Shown one piece after another: positions 18,504 through 22,397 of a stretch of DNA of 64,000 nt. Source of the stretch: Candidatus Omnitrophota bacterium (GTDB lineage: Bacteria; Omnitrophota; Omnitrophia; Omnitrophales; Aquincolibacteriaceae). How positions within the stretch are numbered: the first letter of the stretch is position 1; the number at the start of each line of letters is the position of its first letter. The notes below the pieces were generated by a model. It was not told the DNA's origin. It searched no databases and worked only from the letters and a program-made list of their open reading frames with translations. The stretch spans positions 51,642 through 115,641 of the forward strand of contig JBAYGD010000003.1 of the NCBI GenBank assembly GCA_041666865.1, given 5' to 3'. Both the position numbers and the translations under genes were made by a program.

Positions 18504-19331
18504 CTACGGTTTAATGTTACGTTCAAGCCACTGCCCGAAACGGGTTTTCCAGTTTTTCTTGCTCTGATCGCTGCGAAGATACCACTCCTGGCTTTTCTCC
18601 TCCAGCCAGTCGATCACCTGCCCCTTGAACTCGGCGGAATCGAAGACCTGATCGCCCTCGAGCTGAGTCAGATAGACCGAATAACCTTTCTTTTCGACGG
18701 CCATGGCTTTGGCCTTGGCCCGGGCCACCGAGTCCGGGTCCGCATTTTTTTCAAAGGCCAGAAAAAAAGGCGGCTGTTTTCGTACAACCGAGGCGTAGCG
18801 GACCATCGGCTCCATATAACCGTCCCACGATCCGCCCAGCAACGCCACGGCCCCGAATCGCTCGTGGTGCATGACCCCGAAGTAGGCCGCATAATGCGCC
18901 GATTCCGGGCTCATGCCGACCAAGTAGACCCGCTTTTTGTCGACTTGATAGCGGACGCTGATATCGTCTATCAGCTTGAGCACCCACTCGTCCATCAGAT
19001 AAGGCTCGGAACCGGGCCTCAGCAAACTGCCGGGACAAAGAACGATGAAGCTCCTCCGCTTGGCAATGGATGTCCAGAACTGGATACTATTGCCCGGGTC
19101 GTCCGCTCCGGCTGGGATCGATACGATCATCGGATAGGATTTGGCCGAATCGTAATTTTCCGGGACATATAAGAAGGCCGGGTGGTGCGTTTCCGGAAGC
19201 TGCATCACTCCCGTCGGCATCTTCGGCCCCAGGTTTTCATCGGCTCCCATGAGCACGCCGGGAGAAACGGCGAAGGCCAACGTGCCGATCAAAAAAATCC
19301 CGGCGGCAATCCCCAAAGAGTTTTTCTTCAT
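18504..19331 (-). CDS. Putative secreted alpha/beta-hydrolase (esterase / PHB-depolymerase-like)
   Basis: Start at ATG 19331 gives signal peptide MKKNSLGIAAGIFLIGTLAFAVS; esterase-like blocks YPMIVSIPAGADDPGN and LVGMSPESAHY. Family assignment is tentative. Confidence 0.4.
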   Translation of the reverse strand: MKKNSLGIAAGIFLIGTLAFAVSPGVLMGADENLGPKMPTGVMQLPETHHPAFLYVPENYDSAKSYPMIVSIPAGADDPGNSIQFWTSIAKRRSFIVLCPGSLLRPGSEPYLMDEWVLKLIDDISVRYQVDKKRVYLVGMSPESAHYAAYFGVMHHERFGAVALLGGSWDGYMEPMVRYASVVRKQPPFFLAFEKNADPDSVARAKAKAMAVEKKGYSVYLTQLEGDQVFDSAEFKGQVIDWLEEKSQEWYLRSDQSKKNWKTRFGQWLERNIKP

Positions 19332-19503
19332 CGTGTCCACCCGGCGCGGTTGATTTTTCGACTTGAAACAACCCGCAAAAAAACACAAACCCCCCTTTCG
19401 GGGGACTCGTATCCCTCGTAACTGGCTATGAAAACAAGACTTAATACTACACTCCGAAAAAACGATTGTCAATCGCGGAGGCTTGGAGGTTCCGAGGAAG
19501 GTT

Positions 19504-20142
19504 CTATTTCGTAATTTTGTGGGCTTCGAGGCGCTGGGTAAACTGTTTGGCCCTCTCGGTCATTTCAAGCCAGTTGTCCCGACGCACCAGAGGACGGTCA
19601 AAGATGGCTTCTCGGAGGGTCACGGCCACGCAGTGCTTGAGGTATTCGAAGGCACTTTCGAGGGTTGGCTCCGCATCGGCAATGAGCTTCACGAACGGCA
19701 GGGCCATCCGAAGGTCCTTGACGTACTCGACTCCGCCCATGGCACCCACCGGATAAATCTTCACCATGTCGGCACCGAGCTGAAAGGCGTTCACAGCTTC
19801 CGTGGGAGTCATGGCCCCCTGGATGACGAAGCTGTCGTTGTGCTTCGCCACGCTGATGATGTCCCGGTCGGTATACTGGCTGGAAACGAACTTGGCACCT
19901 GCGTTGAGGACCCGCTGGGTCATCTCGCCGTCGGTGACGCTGGCGGCCCCGACGAGAATCCCCTCGCGCTTGGAATGATTTTCGATCATGCGCAGGGCCT
20001 GCGGCGAATGCATGGAGATTTCGAAAAGGCGGATTCCCCCGGCCATCGCCGCCTTCATCATTTCTTCGGCGTCTTCAGCGGAACCCGAACGGATGAAGGC
20101 GACAAACTTATAATCGTCAAACCACTTCAAAACCTGATCCAT
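19504..20142 (-). CDS. eda: KDPG / 4-hydroxy-2-oxoglutarate aldolase (Eda family)
   Basis: Colinear similarity to E. coli Eda blocks (AGGIRLFEISMHSP, VGAASV, Schiff-base Lys region MVKIYP). Confidence 0.65.
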   Translation of the reverse strand: MDQVLKWFDDYKFVAFIRSGSAEDAEEMMKAAMAGGIRLFEISMHSPQALRMIENHSKREGILVGAASVTDGEMTQRVLNAGAKFVSSQYTDRDIISVAKHNDSFVIQGAMTPTEAVNAFQLGADMVKIYPVGAMGGVEYVKDLRMALPFVKLIADAEPTLESAFEYLKHCVAVTLREAIFDRPLVRRDNWLEMTERAKQFTQRLEAHKITK

Positions 20143-20231
20143 CCCCAGAGCGATTCTCCTTTGTCGTCACGCTTGCAGAGATTTTTATTATGGGATATTC
20201 CGTAGGCGCTGTCAACGTGAAATCATGCCGG

Positions 20232-20426
20232 GGGTGCCTACCACTTGATACAGTTGTTGCGCGGTCGGCAAAGAAAGGTTTCTCCAAAACGCGCCAGCCT
20301 CGCTCGGAGCTCTTAATCTGAGACTGCCGATTGCGCTGATCTCCTCGTCTCGGCAAGCAGCGCTAATTGTTTTTCCGAAACCTTTCTTTGCCTCCTGGGA
20401 GTTACTGTATCAAGTGGTAGGCACCC
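20232..20426. mobile_element. MITE-like non-autonomous element: 195 bp with 23-bp perfect TIRs (GGGTGCCTACCACTTGATACAGT), flanked by 9-bp direct repeat TCATGCCGG (20223-20231 and 20427-20435)
   Basis: TIRs and TSD read directly from the sequence; internal 16-bp inverted repeat GGCAAAGAAAGGTTTC (20267-20282 / 20377-20392); no ORF. The right TSD includes the uvrB stop codon. Confidence 0.6.
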
Positions 20427-22397
20427 TCATGCCGGCTCGCGGGCTTCAAGCTTTCGGATTTCGTCGCGGTAGCGGGCGGCCTTGTCGAATTCAAGGGCCT
20501 TGGCCGCGGTCTCCATACGGCTTTTGAGGAAGGCCAGATAGTTCTTCGCCTCATGCTCCTCGAGGGATTCTCCGACCGCCTCGGAAACGAAGACCTCGGC
20601 CGTGCGGTATTTTTCGATTCCGATTCTGATGGCTTTTCGGATCGAGACCGGCGTGATCTTGTTTTTGCGGTTGTAGGCCTCCTGGATCTTGCGGCGGCGC
20701 GCCGTCTCCCTCATGGCCGTCGCCATCGATTTCGTCACGCGGTCGGCGTAAAAAATCACCTTGCCGTGGAGGTGCCGCGCGGCGCGGCCCGCGATCTGGA
20801 TCAGCGAAACATCGCTGCGCAAAAATCCTTCCTTGTCGGCGTCGAGAACGGCGACCCGCGAGACCTCGGGAAGGTCAAGCCCCTCCCGGAGGAGATTGAC
20901 CCCGACCACGCAGTCGTACTTCTGGAGCCTCAAGTCGCGCAGGATTTCGACCCGCTCGAACGCGTCGAACTCCGAATGAAGGTAGTGCACCCGGATGCCG
21001 GCTTCGCGCAGATAGCGCGAAAGGTCCTCGGCCATTTTCTTCGTAAGCGTCGTGACAAGCACGCGCTCTTTTTTTCGGGTGCACTGTTTGATCTCCGCCA
21101 TCAGGTCGTCGATTTGATGCTTCGTCTTCCTCACCTCGATCCGGGGATCGAGAAGCCCTGTCGGCCGGATGATCTGCTCGACCACCCGGTCCGCGCGCCC
21201 CATTTCATAAGGCCCGGGCGTCGCCGAAACGTAGAGGCGCGGCCCCACCTTCTTCTCGAACTCCGCGAACTTCAGCGGCCGGTTGTCGAGCGCCGACGGA
21301 AGGCGGAACCCGTGCTCGACGAGAACCTTCTTACGGGACTGGTCGCCTTGAACCATCCCCCGGACCTGGGGAATGCTTTGATGCGATTCGTCGATCATCA
21401 CGAGGAAGTCCTTCGGAAAGTAATCGAGCAGCGTGTACGGCGTTGACCCAGGCGCTCTTCCTGCCAGATGCCTCGAATAATTTTCGATCCCCGAACAATA
21501 CCCCACTTCCCGGAGCATTTCGATATCGTAGCGGGTCCGGGACTCGAGGCGCTTGGCGGCCAGATCGTTGCCGTCGCGCAAAAGCTCGCGCACCCTCGAC
21601 GACAGTTCCTCTTCAATGCCGCGGACCGCCTCTTCGAGTCGCGACGACGCCGTGACGAAATGCTTGGCCGGGTAAACCGCCAACTTGGGACAAGCCTTCG
21701 CCGGCTTGAACGTCGTTGCGTCGAGCAAGGCAATGCCGGTCACCATGTCGCCGGCAAAAGTGATCCGGTACGGACTTTCCCCGTAGGACGGATAGAGGTC
21801 CACGGCATTGCCGCGGACGCGGAATGCGCCGCGCTTCAAATCGGTTTCCGCACGGTCGTATTGGATTCCGACAAGCGACTCCAGGAACCGGTCCCGCTCC
21901 AGGGCCTGGCCCGTTTCGATGCAGACCAAAAGACCCTGCCACTCTTCCGGGGAGCCGAGGCCATAAATACAGGAAACGCTCGCCACGATGATGCAGTCGG
22001 GCCGAGACAAAACGGAACTCGTCGCCGCCAGGCGCAGCCGGTCCAGGTCGTCGTTGATCGATGCATCTTTTTCGATGTAGGTGTCCGTGTGCGGGATGTA
22101 GGCCTCGGGCTGGTAATAGTCGTAGTAGGAAACAAAATATTCGACGGCGTTTTCGGGAAAGCATTCCTTGAGTTCGGCGTAGAGTTGGGCGGCAAGGGTC
22201 TTGTTGTGAGAGATCACGAGGGTGGGCTTTGACAACTCGGCAATCACATGGGCCATCGTGAAAGTTTTGCCGGAGCCCGTCACCCCGAGGAGGACCTGCT
22301 CGCGCAGGCCGGTCCGGAAACCTTCGACGATTGCCCGGATCGCTTTGGGCTGATCGCCCCGCGGCCTCATGGTGGAGGACAGGCGGAAAACGCTCAT
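20427..22397 (-). CDS. uvrB: Excinuclease ABC subunit B
   Basis: 656 aa; GVTGSGKT Walker A, helicase motifs, C-terminal UVR domain (ARYRDEIRKLE). Confidence 0.9.
   Translation of the reverse strand: MSVFRLSSTMRPRGDQPKAIRAIVEGFRTGLREQVLLGVTGSGKTFTMAHVIAELSKPTLVISHNKTLAAQLYAELKECFPENAVEYFVSYYDYYQPEAYIPHTDTYIEKDASINDDLDRLRLAATSSVLSRPDCIIVASVSCIYGLGSPEEWQGLLVCIETGQALERDRFLESLVGIQYDRAETDLKRGAFRVRGNAVDLYPSYGESPYRITFAGDMVTGIALLDATTFKPAKACPKLAVYPAKHFVTASSRLEEAVRGIEEELSSRVRELLRDGNDLAAKRLESRTRYDIEMLREVGYCSGIENYSRHLAGRAPGSTPYTLLDYFPKDFLVMIDESHQSIPQVRGMVQGDQSRKKVLVEHGFRLPSALDNRPLKFAEFEKKVGPRLYVSATPGPYEMGRADRVVEQIIRPTGLLDPRIEVRKTKHQIDDLMAEIKQCTRKKERVLVTTLTKKMAEDLSRYLREAGIRVHYLHSEFDAFERVEILRDLRLQKYDCVVGVNLLREGLDLPEVSRVAVLDADKEGFLRSDVSLIQIAGRAARHLHGKVIFYADRVTKSMATAMRETARRRKIQEAYNRKNKITPVSIRKAIRIGIEKYRTAEVFVSEAVGESLEEHEAKNYLAFLKSRMETAAKALEFDKAARYRDEIRKLEAREPA

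Follow-up and report, generated by a model that had tools for sequence, protein, structure and literature searches.

A putative promoter-targeted miniature element with ISKra4-family ends between uvrB and eda in an Omnitrophota genome

Closest described systems

The Mutator-like p-MULT 4 transposases comprise the ISAzba1, ISMich2 and ISKra4 groups, and the ends of p-MULT 4 elements are inverted repeats, 18-39 bp long and finishing in a conserved cytosine, with flanking direct repeats that measure 8 or 9 bp (Guerillot et al. 2014, PMC3942029). In the ISMich2 group, the transposase is carried as two open reading frames (ORFs) joined by a -1 frameshift (PMC3942029). TnGBS, ISLre2 and 13 insertion sequences (ISs) of the ISKra4 group are found 15-17 bp, with a peak at 16 bp, upstream of sigma-A -35 boxes, and insert in either orientation where their two ends are near-identical (PMC3942029). 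An independent survey found that ISLre2 and ISKra4 ISs favour positions 50-250 bp from the nearest gene (PMC9208149). The subject of the present study is an element of 195 bp that lies between uvrB and eda in a 64,000-nucleotide stretch of DNA from a Candidatus Omnitrophota bacterium (contig JBAYGD010000003.1 of assembly GCA_041666865.1, positions 51,642 to 115,641 of the forward strand; the whole stretch is referred to here as the window). This element encodes no transposase and is, for that reason, a derivative and not a full member of the ISKra4 family. It is very probably a trans-mobilised derivative, of the miniature inverted-repeat transposable element (MITE) type, of an Omnitrophota ISKra4-family IS, inserted by promoter targeting 16 nt upstream of the eda -35 box with a 9-bp duplication that took in the uvrB stop codon by chance.

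Classical bacterial MITEs, such as the Correia elements of Neisseria and those derived from IS630 or from IS200/IS605 elements, number tens to hundreds per genome and are flanked by duplications of other kinds, TA for example, and we know of no classical family that is tied to a promoter-targeting transposase. The window element resembles them in being short, non-coding and intergenic, in possessing terminal inverted repeats (TIRs) and a target-site duplication, in forming a hairpin in the transcript and in having its ends in common with an autonomous IS, but differs from them in that only a single copy is documented. The literature searched held no description of promoter-homing MITEs of this kind.

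A hairpin element with perfect ends

The two TIRs of the window element (Table 1) are 23 bp long, 100% complementary and terminate in ...CACCC, and the pair constitutes the longest perfect inverted repeat of the entire 64-kb window. With up to 3 mismatches allowed, the 23-mer has only two matches in the window, namely the two ends of the element, and it was matched nowhere in 100 dinucleotide-preserving shuffles. The 9-bp duplication is perfect on both sides, and simple arithmetic places a chance match of 9/9 at such fixed positions at about 4e-6. These features had been described in a first-pass annotation of the window, and the element, its perfect 23-bp TIRs, its duplications and the stop codon within the right-hand copy all lie at the coordinates given there. 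The same annotation had reported an inner inverted repeat of 16 bp, which corresponds to the first, perfect 16 nt of a sub-terminal repeat of 24 nt and 88% identity (20267-20290 and 20369-20392). More generally, the outer 59-nt segments of the element are 81% identical as inverted copies of one another, and either strand is predicted to fold into a single long hairpin with energies of -102.8 and -101 kcal/mol (z about -10), compared with an average of -57 kcal/mol for shuffled sequences, of which 0/200 folded as stably. The whole-element hairpin proposed earlier is thereby borne out.

No protein-coding content was recognised in the element, which has stops in every frame, an overlapping 79-aa ORF without a family match, and no hit in a tblastn comparison with the transposase described below. 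Removal of the element together with one copy of the duplication (204 nt) reduces the uvrB-eda spacer from 284 nt to 80 nt, in agreement with the compact spacer that the first-pass annotation had anticipated, and the empty site reconstructed in this way reads GAGCCGGCATGATTTCACGTTGACA. The identical element is present in two further assemblies that encode an identical UvrB, one from JGI (3300037810; locus L001 of those fetched for comparison) and one from ENA (ERZ27249449; L002), so it is not an artefact of assembly. The element displays several of the features by which MITEs are recognised: it is short, lacks a transposase gene, and has TIRs, an abutting duplication and ends held in common with autonomous ISs.

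Table 1. Coordinates of the element, its flanking features and the full-length insertion sequences. Positions are those of the window unless a locus is named.
Feature	Position	Strand	Size or sequence	Remarks
Non-autonomous element	20232-20426		195 bp	ORF-less, between uvrB and eda
Target-site duplication, eda-proximal copy	20223..20231		TCATGCCGG (CCGGCATGA on gene strand)	Perfect 9-bp repeat abutting left TIR
Left TIR	20232..20254		GGGTGCCTACCACTTGATACAGT	100% complementary to 20404-20426
Non-coding interior	20255..20403		149 bp	Largely palindromic
Right TIR	20404..20426		ACTGTATCAAGTGGTAGGCACCC	Exact reverse complement of left TIR
Target-site duplication, uvrB-proximal copy	20427..20435		TCATGCCGG	20427-20429 = uvrB stop codon
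Predicted sigma-70-type eda promoter	20187..20215	minus	TTGACA-17-CATAAT	-35 = 20215..20210; -10 = 20192..20187
uvrB	20427..22397	minus	656 aa	Pfam UvrB_inter, UvrB, Helicase_C and UVR domains
eda (KDPG/KHG aldolase)	19504..20142	minus	212 aa	Pfam PF01081
Full-length IS copy, L004	2424-3781
Full-length IS copy, L010	128-1484
Full-length IS copy, L013	12-1370
Full-length IS copy, L015	10-1367

Insertion sequences with the same ends

The 23-mer was sought in its exact form in one genome per prokaryotic species, and with two positions relaxed in a metagenome scan. The exact search identified three contigs of Candidatus Omnitrophus fodinae SCGC AAA011-A17 and one other Omnitrophota metagenome-assembled genome (MAG), and the relaxed search a further 13 stretches. 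In L003, L004, L010, L013, L015 and L025-L034, a transposase gene lies between two facing ends with a spacing of 1357-1359 bp, and the left TIR of the window recurs without change in the 1358-bp IS of Candidatus Omnitrophus fodinae, as the end nearer the transposase (L004 3759-3781). The search for the TIR beyond the window that the first-pass annotation had proposed therefore led to ISs that encode an ISKra4-family transposase, and its reading of the window element as the insertion of a non-autonomous transposon is upheld by the TIRs, the duplication and the ends common to these ISs. Its further claim, that a transposase recognising this TIR is or was recently active somewhere in the genome, goes further than the data: parent-type ISs occur in other Omnitrophota and in metagenomes, but none was found in the accessible part of the window genome.

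The coding content of the parent-type ISs consists of a 64-aa orfA and an orfB of 335-398 aa. The orfB product scores 221 bits against the NCBIfam model of ISKra4-family transposases (NF033572; cut-off 205) and falls far under the cut-offs of the ISLre2, ISH6 and ISL3 models, the ISLre2 model (NF033529) returning 92 bits against a cut-off of 200. A slippery run of eight adenines (A8) is located at the end of orfA (approximately element position 242-249), with orfB in the -1 frame, and this run is kept in L004, L010, L013 and L015, copies that diverge from one another elsewhere. Conceptual fusion of the two frames by a -1 shift yields a protein of 421 aa, raises the NF033572 score to 234 bits and extends the profile match from 68-422 to 26-422 of 422 positions. 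The copy in L003 has A7 at the slippery run, so its orfA and orfB cannot be joined by a -1 shift, and this may mean either that the homopolymer was misread in the single-cell genome or that the copy is dead.

Public homologues of the transposase number about 316 at E <= 1e-20, nearly all of them on contigs of about 1.36 kb, as is usual when a repeat present in many copies is assembled from metagenomes. Among plasmid-borne proteins, the closest relatives carry the annotation ISKra4 family and share only 24-33% identity with the Omnitrophota transposase. The two ends of most full-length copies differ from each other at 1-3 positions, for instance TTGATACAGT as opposed to TCCATACAGT or TTCATACAGT. 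Regarding duplications, that of the L004 copy matches at 7/8 positions, a more distant relative with ends GGGCGCATCCCACTTCAGACGGT (L038-40) displays a perfect 9-bp duplication, and a 9-bp duplication, GTCACCGGA, is split between contig L027 and contigs L031/L033.

Compared with the ISKra4 family, the window element is alike in its 23-bp ends, terminal C and 9-bp duplication, and the parent-type ISs in a transposase that exceeds the NF033572 cut-off and in duplications of 8-9 bp. The size of these ISs (1357-1359 bp) and the -1 frameshift between orfA and orfB are, in turn, features of the ISMich2 group. The differences from the ISKra4 family are that the window element measures only 195 bp and has no transposase, that Omnitrophota are not among the phyla given in PMC3942029, and that the transposase is remote from the plasmid-borne members.

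Two observations concern the surroundings of the IS in Candidatus Omnitrophus fodinae. An ORF for a group II intron reverse transcriptase/maturase (Pfam RVT_1 and GIIM) occupies L004 948-2393, with 30 nt between it and the IS on the left side of the latter, and L003 and L004 have 16 identical nt at the left flank of the IS. The IS may thus lie inside or beside a repeated intron.

Placement upstream of predicted sigma-70-type promoters

The end of the window element is separated by exactly 16 nt (20216-20231) from the -35 box of a predicted eda promoter, which an independent scan scored as an 11/12 match to consensus, with 2 sites called in the region where 0.2 were expected. Reading outward from the element on the gene strand, the duplication (CCGGCATGA) is followed by the 7 nt TTTCACG, by TTGACA, by 17 nt and by CATAAT, and the eda ATG lies 89 nt from the end of the element. 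The same promoter, with an unchanged distance to the eda start codon, is seen as TTGACA-17-CATAAT in L023 and as TTGACT-17-TATAAT in L024, two relatives considered below. The right-hand duplication copy has the uvrB stop codon (TGA on the minus strand, TCA on the plus strand) as its first triplet; in the window genome this codon precedes the eda -35 box by 8-10 nt, so a 9-bp target at this distance spanned the last two uvrB codons and the stop. The contact with the uvrB stop codon is better explained as incidental, and the eda promoter 16 nt away as the informative landmark. The first-pass annotation, which had placed the insertion exactly at the uvrB stop, was accordingly right that the stop is within the duplication, but the landmark is the eda -35 box.

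The same spacing recurs across the TIR family. The set comprised all independent flanks that run outward from a TIR with no more than 4 mismatches and measure 45 nt or more (n=31), and 11/31 flanks contain a full sigma-70-type promoter with its -35 box at offset 15-16 from the end, compared with only 2 full promoter matches at all remaining offsets within 0-39. Shuffled flanks contain on average 0.09 promoters at offset 15-16, and 0/3000 shuffles reach 11. Hexamers matching TTGACA at 5/6 or more positions likewise form a spike of 9 at offset 16 in this set. By eye, neither the 7-nt spacers nor the duplicated 8-9-mers have an obvious sequence in common, which suggests that a promoter or the polymerase bound to it is recognised in preference to a local DNA word.

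Individual sites reproduce the layout of the window. Two well-assembled IS copies, one inside a his operon on a 68-kb contig (L035) and one in L025, show, respectively, a perfect 9-bp duplication, CCATAGTTG, followed by 7 nt and TTGACA, and a perfect 8-bp duplication, ACCTAACC, followed by 7 nt and TTGACA-17-TATAAT. In another Omnitrophota MAG (L006 3955-4111), the exact TIR of the window stands 16 nt upstream of TTTACA-18-TACAAT, beyond which lies tRNA-Pro(TGG). The element there has an interior unlike that of the window beside the TIR, and the locus ends 60 nt into it. A second short element, degenerate and of about 267 bp, occupies L008 2213-2479, with one good and one decayed TIR, an interior unlike that of the window, an 8/9 duplication (GTAAATCGG and GAAAATCGG) and a promoter 16 nt from its outer end; it is arranged head-to-tail with a full-length IS of the same family (2490 onward).

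In this position upstream of a promoter, the lineage is like the 13 ISKra4-group ISs. The 16 nt of the window also falls at the peak of the 15-17 bp that separate TnGBS and ISLre2 from the -35 box, and those systems, too, have duplications of 8-9 bp. They are unlike the present lineage in belonging to another transposase family (by the NF033529 score given above), in being autonomous or conjugative, and in occurring mostly in Firmicutes. Targeting is assigned to the ISKra4 group and the frameshift to the ISMich2 group (PMC3942029), whereas the Omnitrophota lineage, judged from its sequences, appears to have both.

Relatives and copy number

Two relatives, L023 and L024, whose UvrB proteins are 78% and 76% identical to that of the window, keep the uvrB-eda order, and their spacers, 179 and 92 nt long, contain no TIR-like sequence. 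The stop codon of L024 is 12 nt upstream of the first TTGACA of the spacer, a compact arrangement similar to the reconstructed site of the window. The closest relative, L020 (UvrB 83%), has another gene downstream and no TIR, and no TIR-like sequence was found in any of L020-L024. The empty site is thus represented by relatives with 78% and 76% UvrB identity and not by near-identical strains. The empty site that the first-pass annotation would have sought in relatives is, accordingly, seen in the sense that L023 and L024 lack the element, but the exact empty-site sequence is not among them.

Further copies of the 195-bp sequence were sought by several routes. A blastn search of the window and 41 fetched loci (164 kb) returned the same locus in L001 and L002 only, a plasmid collection contained no match to the element, and the concatenated six-frame peptides of the element, compared with 5.8 billion proteins in search of miscalled copies, matched none. 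A scan of viral contigs with the TIR gave no match, and a further 10 kb of the ENA contig, past the start of the window, is free of the TIR. The 149-bp interior has no similarity to the IS copies or to any other fetched locus. The designation 'textbook MITE' in the first-pass annotation therefore fits the TIRs, the duplication and the ends shared with ISs, but it implied many copies, and one was found, with a unique interior.

Alternative explanations

Several observations weigh against a promoter-targeted, trans-mobilised derivative. All of the promoters discussed here are consensus predictions. Many of the IS flanks are on short metagenome contigs and may be chimeric, which weakens the duplications read from them and leaves the promoter statistic, taken from single flanks, unaffected. 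No matching duplication is present at the full-length copies L010, L013, L015, L030 and L031, all of them on short metagenome contigs, and this was attributed to chimeric contigs that arise from collapsed repeats. The 195-bp sequence occurs only once in the approximately 74 kb of the window genome examined, and the large genome and metagenome DNA scans used the TIR only; the window's own locus is absent from both of these scans, so the collections do not contain the window genome and give no copy number for it. There is no transposase of the ISKra4-type family in the 64-kb window, and among the transposase homologues of NCBI and ENA origin the contigs looked up for a parent IS all came from samples other than that of the window. 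Finally, the interior of the window element is unlike the parent-type ISs beyond 23-24 nt.

The single known copy and its unique interior lend some weight to the alternative that survives best, namely that the element is a full-length IS that decayed, losing its interior in place, and was never mobile as a short element. A promoter-targeted insertion of the full-length IS would have left the same duplication at the same position. This history is nevertheless unlikely. A simple internal deletion would keep sub-terminal sequence of the parent, and none is similar beyond the 23-24-nt ends. The two ends of the window element are identical and its outer 59 nt mirrored, whereas those of most full-length copies differ, and an element with identical ends and mirrored halves looks like one built from a single type of end and not like the product of a simple internal deletion. 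The short element of L008 has these ends around a different interior, and that of L006 also differs beside the TIR.

Much less probable is a structured RNA or regulatory hairpin of the host, such as a stabiliser of the uvrB 3' end, a terminator or a small RNA, whose likeness to transposon ends would be incidental. Its very stable fold (-103 kcal/mol, z = -10) and its position between two genes on the transcribed strand would suit such a role, yet no relevant Rfam match was obtained at E <= 1 across 19900-20800 and none at gathering score in the whole window. Relatives, moreover, lack the element in this spacer, its two strands fold with equal stability, as a DNA palindrome should, and its ends are 23/23 identical to those of the ISs with a 9-bp duplication alongside. 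A role as terminator was considered separately and rejected, given that no T-tract follows the stem and the site scan calls no terminator there. The first-pass annotation had stated that conservation of the 195 bp in relatives, with the TIR found nowhere else, would argue for a structured RNA; the relatives lack the element, the TIR recurs elsewhere and Rfam has no match, and this alternative is largely refuted. That the inverted repeat arose by chance or through misassembly, for which nothing speaks beyond the metagenome-assembly source, is scarcely credible and already refuted by the lack of TIR matches in the shuffles and by the identical sequence in independent JGI and ENA assemblies.

Flanking genes and other repeats

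The identical UvrB is named at NCBI as originating from a Candidatus Omnitrophota MAG, and the named close homologues are almost all from Omnitrophota or Omnitrophica. The C-terminus of the window UvrB (...EIRKLEAREPA) is 3-13 residues shorter than those of its closest relatives, and the tail past the UVR motif is of variable length across Omnitrophota. Shortening of UvrB by the insertion was considered and rejected, as the stop codon is part of the duplicated 9-mer and must therefore have existed before the insertion, which left the UvrB protein unchanged.

On the other side of eda, a 322-aa ORF on the minus strand (window 18504-19472) has no Pfam match. At the corresponding position in L001, L002, L023 and L024, between eda and the gene for the acetolactate synthase large subunit, gene callers give a product of 274-277 aa that likewise has no Pfam match. 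The ORF at window 18504-19472 is a conserved gene of unknown function.

Palindromes with the motif GTCATTGCGAGC...GAAGCAATC occur at L035 3535-3685 and L008 2236-2452, and one with the variant motif GTCATTCTGAG...GAAGAATC at L006 4112-4160. They are situated beside or inside elements of the window TIR family on three unrelated contigs and may represent a separate, widespread hairpin repeat.

Proposed mechanism and significance

In the mechanism proposed for the promoter-targeted derivative, a transposase supplied in trans would bind the two identical ends, and the element would move, probably and by analogy, via the circular intermediate that has been proposed for the superfamily. A 9-bp staggered cut would then be made, with its promoter-side edge 7 nt upstream of the -35 box, and targeting would probably proceed by recognition of a sigma-70 promoter or of the RNA polymerase bound to it and not of a DNA word. 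The insertion would leave UvrB unchanged and the core eda promoter intact, and would be neutral for both genes, while a transcript reading through from uvrB would gain a 195-nt, perfect-stemmed hairpin between uvrB and eda.

This is not a new kind of system. Its novelty is modest and resides in promoter homing by a non-autonomous element, in the occurrence of the family in Omnitrophota, and in a frameshifted, ISMich2-like lineage with the targeting of the ISKra4 group. In a broader and more tentative interpretation, which we offer as a possibility only, Omnitrophota host a lineage of the ISKra4 family that combines the -1 frameshift of the ISMich2 type with sigma-70 homing of the TnGBS/ISKra4 type and that also mobilises short hairpin elements. 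If so, the window element would be the first documented promoter-homing MITE, and elements of this type would set long hairpins directly before promoters and so insulate these from transcription that reads through from upstream.

What looks like a precise insertion at a stop codon finds a mechanistic explanation in homing to the neighbouring promoter, with both genes spared. Promoter-targeted transposition of the Mutator-like kind is thereby extended to the phylum Omnitrophota, knowledge of which comes almost entirely from metagenomes, and promoter targeting itself to a non-autonomous element, which implies that the 23-bp ends and a transposase supplied in trans would suffice for it. Without recourse to transcript data, the insertion sites of this TIR family mark likely sigma-70 promoters, that of eda in the window and that of tRNA-Pro in L006, and, if the broader interpretation is correct, such elements would naturally tag genuine promoters in a phylum not yet in culture.

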